Below are positions 1 to 10,524 of a DNA stretch of 10,524 bases, piece by piece (the stretch's first letter is position 1; each line of letters begins with the position of its first letter). Below the pieces are notes generated by a model. The model did no database searches, was not told the origin of the DNA, and saw nothing but the letters and a program-made list of their open reading frames with translations. The stretch is from the IMG/VR virus record IMGVR_UViG_2609459794_000002, positions 1-10,524 of that record. The stretch is one strand, 5' to 3'. The stretch comes from a virus. Lineage: Duplodnaviria; Heunggongvirae; Uroviricota; Caudoviricetes. A program made the translations under genes and the position numbers.

Positions 1-2
1 TG

Positions 3-83
3 GTATTTGGCCTGCTGACGTACCTGACAAACCTTTATTTCAAGATTAAAGAAGATAAGCGCAAGGCTGCGAGAGGTGAATAA
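3..83 (+). CDS. Holin, C-terminal fragment (5' end lies outside the window)
   Basis: Frame-3 translation [26 protein letters not shown] ends at TAA 81-83, overlapping the endolysin ATG (TAATG). The hydrophobic-then-charged tail matches the phage 21 S / DLP12 EssD holin C-terminus as I recall it. Confidence 0.55.
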
Positions 84-580
84 TGCCTCCATCATTACGA
101 AAAGCCGTTGCTGCTGCTATTGGTGGCGGAGCAATTGCTATAGCATCAGTGTTAATCACTGGCTCAAGTGGTAACGATGGTCTGGAGGGTGTCAGCTACA
201 TACCATACAAAGATATTGTTGGTGTATGGACTGTATGTCACGGGCATACAGGAAAAGACATCATGCTCGGTAAAACGTATACCAAAGCAGAATGCAAAGC
301 ACTCTTGAATAAAGACCTTGCCACTGTCGCCAGACAAATTAACCCGTACATCAAAGTCGATATACCGGAAACAACGCGCGGCGCTCTTTACTCGTTCGTC
401 TACAACGTGGGTGCTGGCAATTTCAGAACATCGACGCTTCTTCGCAAAATAAACCAGGGTGATATTAAAGGCGCATGTGATCAGCTACGGCGCTGGACAT
501 ACGCTGGCGGTAATCAATGGAAAGGACTGATGACTCGCCGTGAGATTGAGCGTGAAGTCTGTTTGTGGGGGAAACAATGA
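83..580 (+). CDS. R: SAR endolysin (T4-lysozyme-like muramidase, phage 21 R / RrrD-like)
   Basis: 165 aa with a Gly/Ala-rich weakly hydrophobic N-terminus ([20 protein letters not shown]) typical of a signal-anchor-release domain. The catalytic E-x8-D-x5-T spacing is present ([17 protein letters not shown]). It sits between holin and Rz. Confidence 0.9.
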
Positions 581-1035
581 GCAGAGTAACCGCGATTATC
601 TCCGCTCTGGTTATCTGCATCATCGTCTGCCTGTCATTGGCTGTTAATCATTACCGTGATAACGCAATCGCCTACAAGGAGCAGCGCGATAACAAGGCCA
701 GTGAACTGGAGAAGGCGAACGCCACCATCGCTGACATGCGGAAGCGTCAACGTGATGTAGCAGAACTCGACGCAAGATACACAAAGGAGCTTGCTGATGC
801 TAACGCGACTATCGAAAGTCTCCGTGCTGATGTTTCTGCTGGGCGTAAGCGCCTGCAAGTCGCCGCCACCTGTGCAAAGTCAACGACCGGAGCCAGCGGC
901 ATGGGCGATGGAGAAAGCCCAGGACTTACAGCAGATGCTGAACTCAATTATTACCGTCTCCGAAGTGGAATCGACAAGATAACCGCGCAGGTTAACTACC
1001 TGCAGGAATACATCAGGACGCAATGCCTGAAATAA
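577..1035 (+). CDS. Rz: Rz i-spanin
   Basis: ATG 577-579 overlaps the endolysin stop (ATGA); the ORF track starts at GTG 565 but the ATG is more likely. N-terminal TM helix ([20 protein letters not shown]) followed by a coiled-coil-like periplasmic region, in the classic position after R. Confidence 0.85.
791..982 (+). CDS. Rz1: Rz1 o-spanin lipoprotein, embedded in +1 frame inside Rz
   Basis: Small ORF wholly inside Rz in another frame. Signal peptide with lipobox-like VSAC followed by a proline-rich mature region ([16 protein letters not shown]). True start may be the second Met at 797. Confidence 0.7.
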
Positions 1036-1068
1036 TTTTTTTGCAAATCACAAAGTCCATTTAATGAG

Positions 1069-1121
1069 CCTCGCGATGCGGGGCTTTTTGCAATAAATGC
1101 GTACCGCAACGCATGTTTTTT
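1069..1121 (+). terminator. Two tandem terminator-like hairpins downstream of Rz
   Basis: Hairpin 1: CCTCGC-GAT-GCGGGG (1069-1083, one G-T wobble) followed by CTTTTT. Hairpin 2: ATGCGT-ACCGCA-ACGCAT (1097-1114, perfect 6-bp stem) followed by GTTTTTT. Confidence 0.4.
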
Positions 1122-1236
1122 ACACCGAACCTGCCCCTTTGGAATGGGCCTTTGAGGATACCAGTTAGTGCTGGCGAGCCTCGGTGGGCTGGTTTCCTGT
1201 GCGGCAAAGGTTCATTTCAAAGAGTAGGTACACGCT

Positions 1237-1734
1237 ATGAAATCATTAACCCTCTTCAATCAAGCAATTCGTATCGGTGAAGATGGCATGATCTGCCTCA
1301 CTGATATGTGGAAAGCCAGTGGTAAAAGTGAATCTGAATCGCCTTACCACTACCTGCGAAACAAGCAGACCAAAGAGTTCTTAGCCGAGCTGGAGAAAAA
1401 CCACGAATCTGTGGTTTTTACTGAGCGCGGTGTACACGGTGGAACATATGGCGGGAAGTTTGTTGCTTACGATTATGCGGCTTGGTTAAACCCCGGATTT
1501 AAATATGCAGCCTATAAAGTCCTGGATGACTACTTCACCGGAGAACTTCAGCATCGCAACAGCTTAAGTGCACAGCTCAATATGAAGTGTCATGAGTTTG
1601 ATCAGAAAAAAGATATGGCGAGCTTCTGCGGACAAGGGCTGGCGGCATGGCGCTATACGAAGCCAGTGTTGGTCGCTGAGATTAACTCCCTGGCTAACCA
1701 GCTGCAGATTACGATCCCCGGGCTTCCGGGATGA
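1237..1734 (+). CDS. KilA-N domain-like protein (phage antirepressor-type DNA-binding domain)
   Basis: 165 aa. The N-terminus IRIGEDGMICLTDMWKASGKSESESPYHYLRNKQTKEFLAELEK fits the KilA-N/APSES pattern (IR..DG...T.m.KA.GK....wlr...t.efl). Upstream AGGT Shine-Dalgarno-like motif. Confidence 0.6.
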   Translation: MKSLTLFNQAIRIGEDGMICLTDMWKASGKSESESPYHYLRNKQTKEFLAELEKNHESVVFTERGVHGGTYGGKFVAYDYAAWLNPGFKYAAYKVLDDYFTGELQHRNSLSAQLNMKCHEFDQKKDMASFCGQGLAAWRYTKPVLVAEINSLANQLQITIPGLPG

Positions 1735-1988
1735 GTGATCGTGTCATTGAATGCGCCTCCAGAGCGGGGCGTGACTTCTCAGAGTTCATGAAAGGTGAGA
1801 AGGGCATGATGGAAGCATTGTCCTCGGTGGATGAGTTTGGCGAGCAGCTGCGCCTCAACGGCTGTGTCAATCATCACTTTGTTAGCTACATGATGCGGAA
1901 CTCGATCATGCAGGCATTCATGGACATGGCAAAAGCCGAGAGGAAAGAAGAGCGCCGGCGTAAGCGAGCGGAAGCAAAAGCGAAGTAG
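1731..1988 (+). CDS. Hypothetical protein, start overlaps the KilA-N stop (ATGA)
   Basis: 85-aa ORF with a strongly charged Lys/Arg/Glu C-terminus. The ATGA overlap suggests translational coupling. No family recognised. Confidence 0.45.
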   Translation: MSDRVIECASRAGRDFSEFMKGEKGMMEALSSVDEFGEQLRLNGCVNHHFVSYMMRNSIMQAFMDMAKAERKEERRRKRAEAKAK

Positions 1989-2274
1989 CCATTACAAAGC
2001 CTATCTACGGGTGGGCTTGATAATGGCTTATACCCTACACGGGATAACTTAACTGATATCCCTTTTAAAGGATAAAGGTATTCAAGCCTGACACATCATG
2101 CGCTGTATCGTCGCCGTATTCCCGTATTAACAGAGACCGTAGCCCGACGGGGAACTCCTTCTGCGCGAGTGTGTGGGAATAATCAAAAACGATGCACACC
2201 GGGGTTACCGGGTACACATATTTCATCATGCCAGCGAGTCCGGTTCTGGCACGGAAGAAACCGGACGTTATGAT

Positions 2275-2685
2275 TTAGTGCGGAAATATTTGTGTAGTGT
2301 TCTGAATGTTCTCAGTAAAGAGTAATGAATTATCAAAGGTATAGTAATACCTTTTGTTTTCGTGGATATTTGTAATCCATCTGAAAACCCCTGCAGTAGC
2401 AAGATTTTTCCTGTATTCGTAAAATGATAACTCTCCTGATTTGAATCCTTTTAAGGTGGCTTCTATAAGGCATTTATTTTTTGAAAATCTTACATTTACA
2501 ACCTTACCCTGTCCTTTTATTAAAACCGTATTATCGTTTTCAAGAACAAGATGAATATTCTCTGTAGCTAAATAGTAAATGTAATGTGAGACATTGTGAC
2601 GTTTTAGTTCAGAATAAAACCAGTGATAGTTTAAATTATTTCGCACTTTATCGAATATTTGTTTAAAAATGGCAACCTGAGCCAT
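2275..2685 (-). CDS. AT-rich hypothetical protein, YdfO/YbcV-like (DUF1398-like, from memory), function unknown
   Basis: Minus-strand ORF. The ORF track starts at 2700, but the Met at 2685 (MAQVAIF...) has a GGAAGG Shine-Dalgarno-like motif about 9 nt upstream, giving 136 aa. The coding DNA is visibly AT-rich (roughly one-third GC by eye) compared with the flanking lambda-like DNA. Confidence 0.65.
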
Positions 2686-2741
2686 TGTAGTACCTTCCAT
2701 GTGATATGAGGGGCGTAGTCTGCACGATTATCTAAATTGCT

Positions 2742-2975
2742 TCAATCTGGTCTGATCTGTTTTCTGAGCAATTCAGTAATGTCACTCTTTTCTTTGTTTG
2801 CTTCAGGAGAAACTCTTTTTTCTGAGCACAGTCTCCGGCGGCAGGCTTCAATGACCCAGGCTGAGAAATTCCCGGACCCTTTTTGATCAAGAGCGATGTT
2901 AATTTGTTCAATCATTTGGTTAGGAAAGCGGATGTTGCGGATTGTTGTTCTGCGGGTTCTGTTCTTCGTTGACAT
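2742..2975 (-). CDS. Small ribbon-helix-helix (Arc/CopG-like) DNA-binding protein, YnfO/YlcI-like
   Basis: 77 aa. TTIRNIRFPNQMIEQINIALDQKGSGNFSAWVIEACRRRL fits a beta-strand / helix / G-x-S turn / helix RHH layout. It lies immediately upstream of, and on the same strand as, the AT-rich 136-aa gene. Confidence 0.6.
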   Translation of the reverse strand: MSTKNRTRRTTIRNIRFPNQMIEQINIALDQKGSGNFSAWVIEACRRRLCSEKRVSPEANKEKSDITELLRKQIRPD

Positions 2976-3119
2976 GAGGTTGTCCCGTATTCAGTGTCGC
3001 TGATTTGTATTGTCTGAAGTTGTTTTTACGTTAAGTTGATGCAGATCAATTAATATGATACCTGCGTCATAATTGATTATTTGACGTGGTTTGATGGCGT
3101 AGATGCACGTTGTGACATG

Positions 3120-3363
3120 CAGATGATAATTATTATCATTTTGCGGGTCCTTTCCGGCGATCCGACAGGTTACGGGGCGGCGACCTCGCGGGTTTTCGCT
3201 ATTTATGAAAATTTTCCGGTTTAAGGCGTTTCCGTTCTTCTTCGCCGTAACTTAATGTTTTTATTTAAAACACCCCCTGAAAAGAAAGGAAACGACAGGT
3301 GCTGAAAACGGGCTTTTTGGCCTCTGTCGTTTCCTTTCTCTGTTTTTGTCCGTGGAATGAACA
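3120..3363. other. cos: Lambda-type cos site (cosQ-cosN-cosB), with the cosN 12-nt cohesive-end sequence GGGCGGCGACCT at 3175-3186
   Basis: The sequence ...GATCCGACAGGTTACG|GGGCGGCGACCT|CGCGGGTTTTCGCTATTTATGAAAATTTTCCGG... matches the lambda right-end/left-end junction as I recall it. Nu1 starts about 190 bp downstream, as in lambda. Confidence 0.8.
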
Positions 3364-3883
3364 ATGGAAGTCAACAAAAAGCAGCTGGCTGACATTTTCG
3401 GTGCGAGTATCCGTACCATTCAGAACTGGCAGGAGCAGGGAATGCCCGTTCTGCGAGGCGGTGGGAAGGGTAATGAGGTGCTTTATGACTCTGCCACCGT
3501 CATAAAATGGTATGCCGAAAGGGATGCTGAAATTGAGAACGAAAAGCTGCGCCGGGAGGTTGAAGAACTGCGGCAGGCCAGCGAGACAGATCTGCAGCCA
3601 GGGACTATTGAGTACGAACGCCATCGACTTACGCGTGCGCAGGCCGACGCACAGGAGCTGAAGAATGCCAGAGACTCCGCTGAAGTGGTGGAAACCGCAT
3701 TCTGTACTTTCGTGCTGTCGCGGATCGCAGGTGAAATTGCCAGTATTCTCGACGGGATCCCCCTGTCGGTGCAGCGGCGTTTTCCGGAACTGGAAAACCG
3801 ACATGTTGATTTCCTGAAACGGGATATCATCAAAGCCATGAACAAAGCAGCCGCGCTGGATGAACTGATACCGGGGTTGCTGA

Positions 3884-3909
<26 letters not shown>
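3364..3909 (+). CDS. nu1: Terminase small subunit Nu1
   Basis: 181 aa, MEVNKKQLADIFGASIRTIQNWQEQGMPVLRGGGKGNEVLYDS..., near-identical to lambda gpNu1 as recalled, with the N-terminal winged-HTH region. Lambda-like overlap with A. Confidence 0.95.
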
Positions 3910-6890
<2,981 letters not shown>

Positions 6891-6966
6891 AACCCTTGCT
6901 GCGTCTGGAATGTCGTTTTCCATGCTTTTGATGACCGTTCATCACCCTTCCAGTTTTTCGCGGTTT

Positions 6967-7020
6967 TGTGTATTGCAATGTGTATTGCAAATTGGCGATC
7001 GGGATGGGTGTGTATTGCAA
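6967..7020 (+). repeat. Three direct copies of TGTGTATTGCAA (6967-6978, 6979-6990, 7009-7020) immediately upstream of the integrase gene
   Basis: Read directly: two perfect tandem 12-mers plus a third copy 18 bp downstream, ending 18 bp before the int ATG. Confidence 0.85.
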
Positions 7021-7038
7021 ATCTCTTGAGGGCTTTTA

Positions 7039-8280
7039 ATGGCTATTGAAAACAAACTCAGTGACAAACTGTTAAAGAGTCTTGTCGGAAAACGGCAGGA
7101 CAAACAAAAAACAATAGCGGATGGGCGCGGGTTGTCTGTGCGTGTAAGCATGGTTGGGGGGATCAGCTTTGTTTTTTACTATCGTCTTGGTGGCAGGGAA
7201 TCCCCTCCGGTATGGCTTACACTTGGTCGCTATCCTGACATGTCTCTTGCAACGGCCAGGCGCATGCGTGATCAGTGCCGTGAATGGCTGGCTGAAAATC
7301 TGGACCCCCGCAGGCAAATAAAACTTGCTGCCGAAAAAACTATGCAACCAGTGACCGTAAGGGATGCGCTGTTTTACTGGTACGACAATCACGCCACAAC
7401 AGCCAGAAAAGAGCATGAATATTTAATAAAACGATTTGAAAAGCATATCTTCCCCTATATCGGTGATATGGCTATAGAACAGTGCAAATTACACACATGG
7501 CTTACCGTCTTTGACAGGATCAAAAAAAATGCGCCTGTTATGTCTGGTGCAATTTTTCTTGATATCAAACAGGCGTTGCGTTTTTGTCGCGTCAGGCAAT
7601 ACATCGCGTGCGATCCCTTTGGAGATATTAACGTAAGTTATGTCGGGCGCTCATCCGGTATAAGGGATCGCGTTCTTAATATCAATGAAACCGCTGATGT
7701 ATGGTCTTATGCTTACGGTAATAATTTGCTAACTCTGTCATCAATATATAACCGAAGAATAATGGTTATCTGCCTGGTGTTTGGTTGCCGACAGCAGGAG
7801 GCGAGGCTATCCACCTGGGACGAATGGGATTTAAAAAACTGGGTATGGACAGTCCCAAAAGAGCACAGCAAAAACAAGGAGGCTATAGTAAGGCCTGTTC
7901 CTGACGGAATAAAACAATGGATCGTTAATCTTTACGCAGAAACAAAAAATCGCGGTTATGTTGTCGGTTGTGCTTTGCAAAGGGCGACAATAACAGGGGC
8001 TGCAAACAGAATATGCAGGCGTCTTGGTCATGATACTAATGGCTTGTGGTGCATACATGATTTCAGGCGCACATTTTCCACTACGCTTAATGATATGGGG
8101 GCGGATCCTTATATTGTCGAACTTCTTTTAGGTCATAAAGTGAAAGGGGTTGCTGGTGTTTACAATAAAAGCAGGCATATAAAGAAAAAACTTGAGGTGC
8201 TTAATATGTGGGTTAATTACCTTAATACGATAGCAGGATTTAACAACAACGTTATCGAGCTTAATAAAGAGGTGGTGTGA
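7039..8280 (+). CDS. int: Tyrosine recombinase / phage integrase (P4-like family)
   Basis: 413 aa. N-terminal arm-binding-like region (IADGRGLSVRV...FVFYYRLGGRE...LTLGRYPDMSLATARRMRDQ...LDP). C-terminal catalytic signatures: IHDFRRT (His-x-x-Arg), LLGH, and a Tyr in GVYNKS. GAGGG Shine-Dalgarno 7 nt upstream. Confidence 0.9.
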   Translation: MAIENKLSDKLLKSLVGKRQDKQKTIADGRGLSVRVSMVGGISFVFYYRLGGRESPPVWLTLGRYPDMSLATARRMRDQCREWLAENLDPRRQIKLAAEKTMQPVTVRDALFYWYDNHATTARKEHEYLIKRFEKHIFPYIGDMAIEQCKLHTWLTVFDRIKKNAPVMSGAIFLDIKQALRFCRVRQYIACDPFGDINVSYVGRSSGIRDRVLNINETADVWSYAYGNNLLTLSSIYNRRIMVICLVFGCRQQEARLSTWDEWDLKNWVWTVPKEHSKNKEAIVRPVPDGIKQWIVNLYAETKNRGYVVGCALQRATITGAANRICRRLGHDTNGLWCIHDFRRTFSTTLNDMGADPYIVELLLGHKVKGVAGVYNKSRHIKKKLEVLNMWVNYLNTIAGFNNNVIELNKEVV

Positions 8281-8281
8281 T

Positions 8282-8539
8282 ATGGCAATTTATTCTCTTG
8301 TTGATGAAAACGATTTGCGCACAATGAAGGACATTGATCGGTTCATTCGTGAAAAAGAGTGCATAGCACTTACCACGCTGGCAAACTCAACACGCTGGAA
8401 AATGGAGCAGGCAGGTAAATTCCCGCGACGTATCAAGATCGGTGAACGTGCTGCAGGGTATCGACTTTCAGAGGTTCAGGCATGGATCCGTGGTGAGTGG
8501 CATCCTGGGTGGAAACCTGGAAAAACAAAACAGCAATAA
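8282..8539 (+). CDS. alpA: AlpA-family transcriptional regulator / excisionase-like protein
   Basis: 85 aa starting 1 nt after the int stop. LANSTRWKMEQAGKFPRRIKIGERAAGYRLSEVQAWIR fits the AlpA / MerR-like excisionase HTH pattern. Confidence 0.75.
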   Translation: MAIYSLVDENDLRTMKDIDRFIREKECIALTTLANSTRWKMEQAGKFPRRIKIGERAAGYRLSEVQAWIRGEWHPGWKPGKTKQQ

Positions 8540-8552
8540 CCAGTAAATAATG

Positions 8553-8575
8553 CCCCTCATCACGAGGGGTTTTTT
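8553..8575 (+). terminator. Rho-independent terminator after alpA
   Basis: Perfect hairpin CCCCTC-ATCAC-GAGGGG (8553-8569) followed by TTTTTT. Confidence 0.7.
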
Positions 8576-8595
8576 GTCTATAAGGTAAAAACGCG

Positions 8596-9174
8596 ATGAA
8601 TAAAAATATTGCCGTGACGGGCAAGGGGTACGCTCGTCCAGTGAAAAAATTCTGCGATATTCGTGATCTCGTCGTTCTGCGCTTTGATAGTGTGAACGTT
8701 CGTGTGGTGTATCTGAACGGCGATCCGTGGTTTGTTGCAAAAGATGTTTGTGCTGCGCTGGAACTAACCAATTCGCGTACGGCGTTGCAGATGCTTGATG
8801 ATGATGAAAAGGGAGTAAATTTAACTTACACCCCAGGAGGAAATCAGAATATGAGAATTATCTCTGAGTCAGGTTTCTACAAACTAATAGCCCGCAGCCG
8901 CAAAGCAACGACGCCTGGCACATTTGCTCATCGTTTCAGTAACTGGGTATTCAGAAATGTGATACCAGGTATCAGAAAAACGGGGACTTATGGTATCCCG
9001 TGGGGTGCATTACAGGTTTTTCCCCGCCGTAAAGAGCAATATCAAATAAGTGCCAGCGAGAAGGGGAGGGAGCTACAGGCATGTAAGCGCAAAAAGCGTG
9101 AGCTGGAGGAAGAAGAAAAAACGCTGATACGTGAATATCAGCCTGAGTTTTACTTTGGTAACCGCATTCAGTGA
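8596..9174 (+). CDS. Bro-N domain protein (phage antirepressor-like)
   Basis: 192 aa. DPWFVAKDVCAALELTNSRTALQMLDDDEKG...RIISESGFYKLIARSRKATTPGTFAHRFSNWVFRNVIPGIRKTGTY fits the Bro-N consensus. The C-terminus is charged and coiled-coil-like (KRKKRELEEEEKTLIRE). Confidence 0.8.
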   Translation: MNKNIAVTGKGYARPVKKFCDIRDLVVLRFDSVNVRVVYLNGDPWFVAKDVCAALELTNSRTALQMLDDDEKGVNLTYTPGGNQNMRIISESGFYKLIARSRKATTPGTFAHRFSNWVFRNVIPGIRKTGTYGIPWGALQVFPRRKEQYQISASEKGRELQACKRKKRELEEEEKTLIREYQPEFYFGNRIQ

Positions 9175-9203
9175 CAAAACAAAGGCGACCGCAAAAGGGT
9201 CGC
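9174..9203 (-). terminator. Terminator-like hairpin between convergent genes, oriented for the minus-strand transcript
   Basis: Perfect 7-bp stem GGCGACC / GGTCGCC with a 7-nt loop (9183-9203). On the minus strand it is followed by TTTGTTTTG. It lies between the Bro-N stop and the stop of the minus-strand 59-aa ORF. Confidence 0.45.
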
Positions 9204-9270
9204 CAGTGGGAACAAGGGAAAACAAAAGCATCACCAACAATGCCACATTTGCGGCTGGTGGGCAATGTGA

Positions 9271-9450
9271 TCAGTCAGATTTGGTTCGTTCCAAGGTTTG
9301 CAACGAGAGCTTTTTCCTGTGCTCTTTAAGGAATTTCTCAAGAGCAAACGAACAAGGTGCGAATCTTTCTGATTCATGTTCATGCGCTATATTTTTGCGT
9401 CGTCTCTTACGAGTTGGTGATGGTGTTTTGGTTGATTCTGTGTCGCTCAT
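9271..9450 (-). CDS. Small highly basic hypothetical protein (59 aa), not in the supplied ORF track
   Basis: Hand translation of the minus strand: MSDTESTKTPSPTRKRRRKNIAHEHESERFAPCSFALEKFLKEHRKKLSLQTLERTKSD. AGGA 8 nt upstream of the ATG. Lies 57 nt downstream of the 101-aa gene on the same strand and is followed by the convergent hairpin. Confidence 0.4.
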   Translation of the reverse strand: MSDTESTKTPSPTRKRRRKNIAHEHESERFAPCSFALEKFLKEHRKKLSLQTLERTKSD

Positions 9451-9507
9451 GGTGCTGTCCTGTAAAGCAATGCGCCTGCGTTCCTCAAACTATGGCGCTG
9501 ATATTGG

Positions 9508-9813
9508 CTATTCATGCTCTTTGACCTTGCGTCGCTGGAGTTCTTCACGCGCGACGGTGACGAGTTGCCCGATCTCCTCGGCTGCTTTGATGCCGATTTG
9601 TTCGACCTTAGCCAGGGCATCCAGTGACGACACAAGGGGATTTTCTCCGCTGCCTTCTGCTTGGCGGCGGGCTATTTCTCCGCGCATGGCGGTTACGATA
9701 AATCCGGCATTGCTTTCACCGTCCAGCTTAACGGATTCCATCCCTTGCATAACATCTAGTGGGACTCTGACAGTTGTCAGTTGTGATTTTGCGTTTTTGT
9801 TAGCCGTTGCCAT
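9508..9813 (-). CDS. Hypothetical regulator with an RHH-like N-terminus (101 aa)
   Basis: GGAG Shine-Dalgarno 9 nt upstream of the ATG. TTVRVPLDVMQGMESVKLDGESNAGFIVTAMRGEIARR resembles a ribbon-helix-helix fold. Transcribed divergently from the operator region. Confidence 0.55.
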   Translation of the reverse strand: MATANKNAKSQLTTVRVPLDVMQGMESVKLDGESNAGFIVTAMRGEIARRQAEGSGENPLVSSLDALAKVEQIGIKAAEEIGQLVTVAREELQRRKVKEHE

Positions 9814-9834
9814 TTCTGAAACTCCTAATCATCG

Positions 9835-9912
9835 GTGTGTTTCAGTATACACAAAAAAAGAAATACAAAAAGCCTTGACGTGTGTTTCATGCGCTCATAA
9901 CATGAAACACAC
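9835..9912. promoter_or_regulatory. Divergent promoter/operator region: perfect 12-bp inverted repeat with 9-bp spacer (9880-9912), a third half-site at 9836-9845, and candidate -35/-10 elements
   Basis: GTGTGTTTCATG (9880-9891) and CATGAAACACAC (9901-9912) form the palindrome. TTGACG (9875-9880) with a 17-bp spacer to TAACAT (9898-9903) is a candidate plus-strand promoter overlapped by the palindrome. The minus strand has a TATACT -10-like hexamer next to the third half-site. Confidence 0.55.
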
Positions 9913-10003
9913 CGAAAGGATTGTTGAAATACAAAGAGCAACGCCCCGCAGTGCTGGGAACACATACGGGGCGTCTAACCAACAACGTAAACTAGGAGCC
10001 GTT

Positions 10004-10177
10004 ATGGTTGCTGTAAATCATATACCACACCTTGTACACACACAAACGGCCTTTGTGTGGCGTTTTCTGGCACTGAGTGCCGGAGAATCTCAAATCATCC
10101 ACGTAACCGCCTGGACGGAACGCGAAGCGCGTAGCCGTTGCCCGTCCGGTTGTGTTGCTGTATTCGCTGCAAAAATC
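10004..10177 (+). pseudogene. 5' part of an unknown gene, apparently interrupted by the IS1 insertion
   Basis: ATG at 10004 preceded by AGGAG with a 5-nt spacer. The ORF (MVAVNHIPHLVHTQTAFVWRFLALSAGESQIIHVTAWTEREARSRCPSGCVAVFAAKI) runs straight into the IS1 terminal inverted repeat at 10178. Confidence 0.4.
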
Positions 10178-10524
10178 GGTAATGACTCCAACTTATTGAT
10201 AGTGTTTTATGTTCAGATAATGCCCGATGACTTTGTCATGCAGCTCCACCGATTTTGAGAACGACAGCGACTTCCGTCCCAGCCGTGCCAGGTGCTGCCT
10301 CAGATTCAGGTTATGCCGCTCAATTCGCTGCGTATATCGCTTGCTGATTACGTGCAGCTTTCCCTTCAGGCGGGATTCATACAGCGGCCAGCCATCCGTC
10401 ATCCATATCACCACGTCAAAGGGTGACAGCAGGCTCATAAGACGCCCCAGCGTCGCCATAGTGCGTTCACCGAATACGTGCGCAACAACCGTCTTCCGGA
10501 GCCTGTCATACGCGTAAAACAGCC
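10178..10524 (-). mobile_element. IS1 insertion sequence, partial (right end inward; continues past the window edge)
   Basis: Begins with the IS1 terminal inverted repeat GGTAATGACTCCAACTTATTGATAGTG. The minus-strand translation is the InsB C-terminus (...[109 protein letters not shown]). Confidence 0.9.
10193..10524 (-). CDS. insB: IS1 transposase InsB, C-terminal part (N-terminus outside the window)
   Basis: The minus-strand frame is continuous from the window edge through the track ORF 10193..10459. Sequence recognised as IS1 InsB. Confidence 0.8.

Follow-up and report, generated by a model that had tools for sequence, protein, structure and literature searches.

The DNA analysed here, called the window throughout, is a 10,524-nt stretch of a virus of the class Caudoviricetes (IMG/VR record IMGVR_UViG_2609459794_000002, positions 1–10,524). 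It carries what appears from its sequence to be a phage-inducible chromosomal island (PICI), a satellite lodged in a lambdoid prophage. Our subject is the 190-bp interval at 9814–10003, the likely control region of this island. The interval separates the minus-strand gene of a 101-amino-acid ribbon–helix–helix (RHH) protein (9508–9813) from the ATG at 10004 of an Icd-like open reading frame (ORF) on the plus strand. A preliminary description of the window had given the same coordinates. It had also proposed a repressor-controlled switch at this place, with the adjacent RHH-like protein as the candidate repressor.

Repeated sites and candidate promoters at 9814–10003

The interval and the two genes beside it contain the following features.

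9508–9813, minus strand: 101-amino-acid YlcI/YnfO-family RHH protein, candidate repressor; RHH core at about residues 9–54, long C-terminal helix at residues 59–100
9832–9844, plus strand: distal candidate operator site TCGGTGTGTTTCA, overlapping the −10 element and predicted start of the RHH gene promoter
9849 to 9844, minus strand: TATACT, candidate −10 element of the RHH gene, overlapping the last base of the distal site
9860–9873, plus strand: GAAATACAAAAAGC, first copy of a direct repeat, kept within its operator type; 7/10 match to TGAAACACAC
9875–9903, plus strand: sigma-70-type promoter TTGACG (9875–9880), 17 bp, TAACAT (9898–9903), a 9/12 match; predicted promoter of the icd-like/replication operon
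9880–9912: proximal candidate operator, a perfect 12-bp inverted repeat GTGTGTTTCATG (9880–9891) / CATGAAACACAC (9901–9912), with 9 nt between the arms and arm centres 23 bp apart
10004–10177, plus strand: Icd-like ORF, opening the replication operon; IS1 interrupts it after codon 58 of 65

In the 10.5-kb window there are three copies of the word GTGTGTTTCA, which lie together within 78 bp, at 9835–9844 (plus strand), 9880–9889 (plus) and 9903–9912 (minus), and no further copy was found in the window when one mismatch was allowed. An intact copy of the island, 99% identical to that of the window, is present in E. coli CFSAN018748 (L001). There the word again occurs only at the same three sites, and looser matches are at chance level (7 against 5.0 expected). 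The second and third copies lie in the arms of the inverted repeat, whose perfect 12-bp arms and 9-nt spacing we confirmed. Among the perfect inverted repeats of the window (loop ≤ 20) it has the longest arms. Dinucleotide shuffles of the window produced a perfect arm of at least 12 in 3 of 300 cases, and any 10-mer three times within 90 bp in none of 200.

The distal copy is identical to the right arm at 13/13 bases, TCGGTGTGTTTCA (9832–9844 compared with 9903–9915); with the distal site taken at this length, the three copies span 81 bp. This third half-site had been reported before, but at 9836–9845 rather than at 9835–9844. A reported direct repeat likewise exists, though not at 9861–9870 and 9936–9945: the sequence GAAATACAAA(A/G)AGC is found at 9860–9873 and 9926–9939. 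Where its first copy lies, other operator types (see below) have a strong type-specific site, and we read this copy as a probable, degenerate fourth half-site. As the leader segment around the second GAAATACAAA copy is conserved in all types, that copy is not a type-specific site.

The palindrome had been described as overlapping the TTGACG-17-TAACAT promoter. This promoter proved to be the only sigma-70-like match on either strand in 9400–10200. The left arm shares its first base with the end of the −35 element and occupies the spacer; the right arm takes in the final base of the −10 element together with the predicted start site. We compared the region with its relatives in a set of 26 distinct loci from about 12 genera, made up of E. 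coli genomes, 20 loci from one-genome-per-species contigs and the model island EcCICFT073 (L033). In most loci the distance between a TTGA(C/T)-type −35 element and the RHH ATG is 62 nt (50–65 nt across the set), and a −10 element with A2 and T6 follows at 17–18 bp in 24 of the 26.

On the minus strand, the TATACT hexamer stands beside the third half-site as had been noticed earlier. A minus-strand −10 element scoring at least 4/6 was present in the matching 32-nt search window of every one of the 26 loci, and in 10 of them it was a perfect TATAAT. The core of the distal site is invariant across E. coli, Xenorhabdus, Photorhabdus and Serratia. Since this site overlaps the −10 element and start of the RHH gene, it is a candidate site of autoregulation.

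The RHH protein and the words that accompany it

The 101-amino-acid protein matched the NCBIfam model YlcI_YnfO_N (NF041551) above the curated cut-off (63.3 bits against 30; E 1.6e-17; residues 9–50), and RefSeq gives the identical protein the YlcI/YnfO label. The family has 216 detectable members across Enterobacterales, and an Arc-like ORF at the same position in locus L008 matches the model weakly (E 1.4e-3). AlphaFold2, run on a 69-sequence alignment, predicted an extended N-terminus, helices at residues 19–28 and 35–54 and a long helix at 59–100, with a mean predicted local distance difference test score (pLDDT) of 83. This predicted structure contains the β–α–α core of about 45 residues that is expected of an RHH protein. 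Its best structural neighbours are the RHH antitoxins Rv0298, TacA, MazE and ParD. Residues 11–17, the predicted DNA-reading strand, form discrete types in the alignment. The C-terminal half is nearly invariant, recombines independently and is absent from family members of 59–60 residues.

Two side observations concern this protein and its family. A profile search of PDB sequences linked residues 45–86, in the C-terminal half (gene 9508–9690), weakly to archaeal Hef through a helix–hairpin–helix-like match (E 0.004; ..VEqIGiKaAeeI.., I73 and G74 being invariant), whereas the AlphaFold2 model has one continuous helix in this half. A second YlcI/YnfO-family ORF lies in the prophage part of the window at 2742–2975 (minus strand, 77 amino acids, NCBIfam E 6.5e-9, strand region TTIRNIRFP). 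It is divergent from a lambda-type cos and a nu1-like gene, and the helper-type prophage and the satellite thus each encode a member of the family.

Across the 26 loci the two promoter-proximal sites lie at fixed offsets, +6 to +15 and +29 to +38 from the start of the −35 element, the second being just past the −10 element. At these same offsets the repeated word changes with the type of the N-terminal strand of the RHH protein. At least 10 word/strand types were distinguished, as listed.

strand SQLTTVRVP: word GTGTGTTTCA
strand SQMTTVRIP: word GTGTATTTCA
strand SQSLTARIP (E. coli, Enterobacter soli): word GTGTAAG
strand SKQISIRIP: word GTGTGATTCA
strand SQxKN[VI]RIP: word GTGTGTATT
strand SQMKNIRFP / SQIKNVRVP: word GTGTGCA
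strand SQTVAARVP: word GTGTTnAACAC
strand SQALKARVP (EcCICFT073): word GTGGGCCACAC
strand SKKLEARVP: word GTGGCTGACAC
strand SQQLNARFP: word TGGTATTCA
Arc-like ORFs at the same position in L008 and L035: words GGTAATTACC and ATGTAATGTGT

The same strand in distant hosts goes with the same word. This holds for SQLTTVRVP in Xenorhabdus and Photorhabdus, for the near-identical SQLFTVRVP in Serratia and for SQSLTARIP in Enterobacter soli. A search for the half-site next to homologous RHH genes, as suggested in the preliminary description, thus found it conserved in Xenorhabdus, Photorhabdus and Serratia. Within the SQLTTVRVP type (10 loci from E. coli, Xenorhabdus, Photorhabdus and Serratia), conservation leaves a footprint on the arms: 4% of positions differ in the right arm and 11% in the left, compared with 47% in the spacer and 34% in the flank.

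Mantel correlations between strand type and operator arms were 0.79 (right arm) and 0.67 (other arm). As the linked flank also correlates (r = 0.64), we set this measure aside as proof of co-evolution. Linkage alone gives correlation, and the case therefore rests on the footprint within the type and on mosaic loci. Where AlpA is 100% identical (L004 and L007) the words differ, and where the control regions are identical (the window and L003) the AlpA proteins share 35% identity. L001 and L003 have identical words, while their Icd proteins are 48% and their primases 49% identical. The word thus tracks the RHH strand and not AlpA, Icd or primase, which excludes those partners as binders. The sites, their departure from randomness, the conservation of the promoter, the RHH fold and the co-variation of protein and word come directly from these computations. 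They support the earlier choice of the adjacent protein as candidate repressor: judged by sequence comparison, the 101-amino-acid RHH protein is the best candidate for the binder of the palindrome and most likely acts as such.

Proposed control of the replication operon and its alternatives

We consider it likely that 9814–10003 is the control region of the PICI, in which an RHH repressor acting on the repeated word would silence the promoter of the replication operon and regulate its own gene. Binding, repression, autoregulation and oligomeric state are inferences drawn from where the sites lie and from the established behaviour of the RHH repressors Arc, Mnt and CopG. The divergently transcribed 101-amino-acid protein would bind the repeated word (TC)GGTGTGTTTCA, with one RHH dimer on each arm of the palindrome and the two dimers probably bridged by the long C-terminal helix. 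Bound repressor would block RNA polymerase at the −10 element and start site, and the icd-like/DUF4222/primase operon would be silent. A further dimer at the distal site, over the RHH gene's own −10 element and start, would give negative autoregulation.

The region had been likened to a bidirectional switch with the logic of lambda cI/cro. The operator over the promoter fits this comparison, and as at lambda OR, divergent promoters share repeated operator sites and the relatives fall into several specificity ("immunity") types. Two mutually antagonistic regulators do not fit it, because the rightward replication operon is headed by an Icd/Kil-like ORF. No Cro-like partner was found on the rightward side, where the Icd-like ORF matches no DNA-binding family and the small downstream ORFs were not examined exhaustively. 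The region also differs from OR in having an RHH rather than a helix–turn–helix (HTH) regulator and in giving no evidence for bistability.

Several points weigh against repression by the RHH protein. The promoter of the RHH gene has no convincing −35 element, and a T-rich tract lies upstream of it. Pfam gave only sub-threshold matches for the protein (PSK_trans_fac, E 0.022), and a profile search of PDB sequences returned no RHH protein. Protein and operator are adjacent, so that co-inheritance by itself yields a correlation between them. Finally, over-expression of AlpA alone induced EcCICFT073 (PMC6092414); repression by the RHH protein must accordingly be bypassable or not dominant.

The setting of the promoter resembles that of satellite P4. 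To judge from the sequence context, the TTGACG-17-TAACAT promoter is the positional equivalent of P4 PLE, because the Icd-like domain is common to both elements and because two relatives (L034 and L036) have P4-type RNAs behind the same promoter. The NCBIfam model phage_ICD_like matched the intact Icd-like copy with E 1.2e-17 and the P4 kil/eta ORF with E 7.8e-21. When the Icd-like ORF was compared with the P4 kil/eta ORF by BLASTP, no match appeared; the link is seen solely through this domain. As in P4, the promoter is nested in a long ORF that ends in the Icd/Kil-like domain and starts near an alpA homologue. The P4 leader and CI sequence are unrelated to the leader in the window.

In P4, the Rfam models C4 (CI RNA) and isrK (seqA) match just downstream of PLE. 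Neither model matched in the window (E ≤ 10, 1.1 kb), in L001–L008, in EcCICFT073 or in L037. The same models gave 74.9 and 60.8 bits with P4 and 66–82 bits with L034–L036 as positive controls. A search of the whole window (E ≤ 1) and of 9100–10200 (E ≤ 10) against Rfam found no RNA family in the region, only chance matches to eukaryotic models. The combination of C4 and isrK past the promoter, which marks P4-type RNA immunity, is thus absent from the window. In L034 (2701–2886) and L036 (2181–2369), the RHH-flanked promoter and its leader are the same and are followed by isrK and C4. In L035, C4 is present twice (2340–2427 and 2821–2908): one copy separates the RHH-side control region from icd, and a second Icd-like ORF contains the other. 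We had considered RHH control and CI-RNA immunity as mutually exclusive; this was ruled out, as L034, L035 and L036 have both. By this comparison the RHH/operator layer can stand alone, as in the window, or precede an RNA layer, as in these relatives. In the window it would take the place of the CI-RNA immunity of P4. A survey of helper-embedded PICIs (HE-PICIs) reports CI/seqA-type RNAs in several PICIs and treats this zone as one of Bro genes and RNA immunity (PMC10111431).

The leader and the long frame around it add the following features.

9128–10177, plus strand: long eta-like frame in phase with icd, open through the operator/promoter and antisense through the RHH gene
9906–9925, plus strand: small 5′-proximal leader hairpin, weak in the window (fold of 9905–10010)
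9941–9974, plus strand: conserved hairpin of the leader, ACGCCCCG...CGGGGCGT, whose inner stem is GTG/CAC; found in all loci examined
10039–10069, plus strand: terminator-like hairpin CACACAAACGGCCTTTGTGTG plus GCGTTTTCTG, within the Icd-like ORF

The leader downstream of the right arm is about 94 nt long. At the place of the small hairpin, relatives have CCTTGA..TCAAGG or CCTTATC..GTAAGG. The conserved hairpin is followed by single-stranded GTCTAACCA (9973–9981; family consensus [CGT]TCTnACC). Four of its 9 pairs show compensatory changes. Pairing holds in 92% of cells, compared with 28–47% with slid partners, and the covariation of 0.171 (against 0.050) was reached in 0 of 500 shuffles. Rfam gave no family match for this hairpin. 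A reading of the hairpin and the motif (G/C)YUCUnACCA as nut-like or rrn-like boxB/boxA found no support: there are 6–7 mismatches in 13 positions to rrn boxA, and no lambda-type boxA occurs in the loci compared. The sequence of the terminator-like hairpin is also found in L034, 5′ of its seqA/CI RNAs.

The control region had been taken as intergenic. It does lie between genes, but inside a long plus-strand frame that is kept open. In most loci the icd frame is open for 600–1100 nt upstream, while the other two frames close within 99 nt. The open length upstream is 876 nt in the window and 1101 nt in EcCICFT073; the P4 frame measures 654 nt in all. The frame covers the RHH gene in 24 of the 26 loci and runs on into icd in 20. 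In EcCICFT073 it (L033 29752–31053) reaches 38 nt past the alpA stop codon, and in L008 it begins at the next base after that stop. Openness across the 190–200-nt control region has a P of 0.006–0.04 per locus in six operator types; opposite the RHH gene it is unremarkable (P about 0.4–0.5). The only Pfam domain found in the long frame was Phage_ASH, in the stretch over seqA/CI.

On the model of P4, which PMC10111431 summarises, we infer that the long frame may be translated on read-through transcripts from alpA. More speculatively, at induction AlpA-driven upstream transcription would read through the region on the plus strand, and translation of the eta-like frame would protect this transcript, which is antisense to the RHH gene. 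The repressed promoter would then be bypassed. Induction by AlpA alone fits such a bypass by read-through from alpA, and sets a bound on the dominance of the repressor as well.

Two alternatives would place control at the level of RNA. Instead of being a DNA operator, the inverted repeat might form an RNA hairpin that serves as attenuator, terminator or processing site; we regard this as the least probable of the alternatives. The arms could form a 12-bp stem, they change together across types in a way that superficially resembles covariation, and transcripts reading through from alpA would hold both arms, as the long plus-strand frame crosses the region; truly structured RNA also exists further downstream. 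A hairpin leaves unexplained, however, the third copy of the word, 45 bp upstream beyond the −35 element, and the fourth copy of several types. In EcCICFT073, L034 and the KN-type loci (L015, L019, L022) the promoter-proximal copies are direct repeats, so that no pairing is possible. The −35 element precedes the left arm, and the −10 element falls in the "loop"; the promoter's own transcript therefore lacks the left arm. Moreover, the arms are kept as sequence within a type, without compensatory changes, and no U-tract follows the stem. Alternatively, a CI/C4-like antisense RNA and a seqA target might end transcription as in P4, the palindrome being incidental. This is improbable, although the PLE position before the Icd/Kil-like ORF, the C4 RNAs behind the same kind of promoter in L034, L035 and L036 (with isrK in L034 and L036), the CI/seqA-type RNAs of several PICIs (PMC10111431) and the presence of a conserved leader hairpin would all agree with it. 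Models that recognise P4 and L034–L036 find neither RNA in the window, L001–L008, L033 or L037, and the leader has just about 94 nt. The leader hairpin also occurs in loci with CI/seqA and is thus not the equivalent of these RNAs.

The other two alternatives keep a protein at the centre. The repeats might bind another island protein, namely AlpA (as activator or excisionase), the primase (as iterons) or the product of a 59-amino-acid ORF. AlpA is a known activator of Gram-negative PICI genes (PMC6092414) and is encoded about 1.3 kb upstream, and satellites such as P4 often have iterons associated with their primase. Yet AlpA and primase fail to follow the word in the loci compared above (L004/L007, window/L003 and L001/L003), the 59-amino-acid ORF is conserved across operator types, and on the island the word is confined to the control region; we consider another binder very improbable. 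Lastly, the RHH protein and the Icd-like ORF might form a toxin–antitoxin-like pair, in which the RHH protein would chiefly neutralise or silence a cell-division inhibitor, with satellite replication control being secondary. The structural neighbours of the RHH protein, its weak Pfam match to PSK_trans_fac and the annotation of the Icd/Kil-like domain as a cell-division inhibitor point in this direction. RHH antitoxins dominate the solved RHH structures, however, and the list of neighbours is biased accordingly. The two genes are divergent, unlike co-transcribed type II systems, and the icd-like ORF heads a long operon ending in primase. No toxin-binding C-terminal region was identified, and 59–60-residue family members do without the C-terminal half. 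A pair of this kind is unlikely.

Repression of the replication operon by the RHH protein can be extended to a wider proposal, which is tentative and, taken as a whole, rather doubtful. In it the YlcI/YnfO RHH protein would be the missing master repressor or immunity determinant of Gram-negative PICIs, diversifying into at least 10 specificities. It would keep the PLE-equivalent promoter off at rest and be overridden by AlpA-driven read-through, translated along the eta-like frame, across the operators and antisense to the repressor gene; the leader hairpin would serve as a further control, and cross-talk with the homologue at 2742–2975 would be possible.

The satellite, its host prophage and known systems

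The preliminary description had spoken of an "island". This is right but imprecise: the element is a PICI satellite within a prophage portal gene. Positions 1 to about 6890 of the window are the late region of a lambdoid prophage, with lysozyme, Rz, lambda-type cos, terminase, W and the N-terminal part of portal. The island begins at 7039 with integrase, AlpA and a Bro-N protein, followed by a minus-strand 59-amino-acid ORF, the 101-amino-acid gene, the control region and, on the plus strand, the Icd-like ORF. In L001 the order past the Icd-like ORF is small ORFs, DUF4222, primase, SSB, major capsid, decoration, an HTH gene, TerS and the remainder of portal. The portal gene is split by the island (5780–6661 and 17507–18280 in L001; in the window the portal part is 6009–6890, with int at 7039).

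Window and L001 together have the co-oriented int, alpA and primase and the integration, Bro, replication and late zones of a PICI, and the insertion is within a late gene (portal) of a helper-type prophage. On these sequence grounds the element is an HE-PICI, a Gram-negative satellite as defined, with its zone scheme, by Mageeney et al. 2023 (PMC10111431). A tRNA scan of the window found none, and the island is thus not at a tRNA site. Induction and transfer by helper phage were demonstrated experimentally for the related EcCICFT073 (PMC6092414). A sister island (L002, 3214–3622) is inserted in a major capsid gene; the HE-PICI configuration as such has already been described (PMC10111431).

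Two features flank the genes considered so far.

9271–9450, minus strand: 59-amino-acid basic ORF (..RKRRRKNIAHEHESERFAPCSFALEKFLKEH..), 3′ of the RHH gene on the same strand
10178–10524, minus strand: IS1 end, with inverted repeat GGTAATGACTCC... and the C-terminal part of the transposase (NCBIfam transpos_IS1, E 5e-19); junction placed by comparison with L001

Homologues of the 59-amino-acid ORF are found at the same position in L003 (annotated), L008 and EcCICFT073, regardless of operator type. The ORF matched no family in Pfam or NCBIfam and is probably co-transcribed with the RHH gene. Identity to L001 stops at 10177, where IS1 interrupts the Icd-like ORF; within the window, this insertion severs the island copy from its replication and late genes. 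Compared with L001, codon 94 of the portal fragment in the window has changed from W to a premature stop. Just 5′ of the prophage cos, 66 bp (window 3143–3208) recur at 94% identity in L001 at 15679–15744, between the HTH gene and TerS, where they probably belong to a cos-like packaging region of the satellite itself. A long near-perfect hairpin at 3280–3342 lies between cos and the nu1-like gene. The inverted repeat is real; its match to mir-578 (E 0.46) is a chance match to a eukaryotic model.

Among known systems, the immI region of P22 (Mnt/Arc) also has a small RHH repressor divergent from the promoter it controls (Pant/Pmnt), operators overlapping promoter hexamers, and autoregulation, as is proposed here. 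Mnt likewise combines an RHH core with a C-terminal helical oligomerisation domain. In contrast to P22, the protein here belongs to YlcI_YnfO_N, with no detectable Arc or Mnt sequence membership. Its half-sites are 23 bp apart and flank the −10 element, whereas the P22 operator is compact (17–21 bp). The operon consists of an icd-like gene and satellite replication genes instead of an antirepressor gene, and one repressor gene is evident. With P4 immunity the region shares its site after an alpA/vis homologue and before an Icd-like ORF and primase, and its promoter within a long open frame reaching toward an alpA-like gene (eta toward orf88 in P4). It differs in lacking C4 and isrK, in a leader unrelated to that of P4 and in the antisense RHH gene, none being annotated in the P4 immunity region.

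Stl proteins are of the HTH type. The protein considered here has an RHH fold, and its gene points toward int/alpA and lies antisense inside a longer frame. Otherwise the arrangement is like that of Stl/Rpr in the PICIs of Gram-positive bacteria (Staphylococcus aureus pathogenicity islands, SaPIs), in which a satellite repressor is divergent from the replication operon with the operator between them (PMC6092414). A further difference concerns induction: for Stl, a helper protein is documented to relieve repression, whereas in Gram-negative PICIs induction goes through AlpA (PMC6092414).

YlcI (DLP12) and YnfO (Qin) of E. coli K-12 belong to the same NCBIfam family as the 101-amino-acid protein. 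Unlike it, the prophage members lie beside cos/terminase, as does the ORF at 2742–2975, and not in a satellite control region; in K-12, ylcI and ynfO have this position in their lambdoid prophages.

Fillol-Salom et al. 2018 left it unclear whether Gram-negative PICIs have a global repressor (PMC6092414), and none has been reported for EcCICFT073. A 2026 survey of Enterobacter lists a "YlcI/YnfO, prophage-associated protein" without a role. In the literature that we searched, which was incomplete, we found no description of an RHH/operator module in PICIs and no function assigned to YlcI/YnfO. RHH repressor/operator modules are a known kind; what appears to be new is the placement of this one, its diversification and its antisense nesting in an eta-like frame.

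The analysis thus adds a compact and computationally well supported protein repressor/operator module at the PLE-equivalent promoter of PICI satellites. The same module is present in the experimentally tractable EcCICFT073 and across Enterobacterales, in many specificity types. The YlcI/YnfO family, so far without a function, gains a testable role, and satellite biology gains a concrete target for knockout and electrophoretic mobility shift assays. The types may also provide a natural set of orthogonal small repressor/operator pairs. Finally, the antisense nesting of the module in an open eta-like frame links the regulation of PICIs with that of P4.

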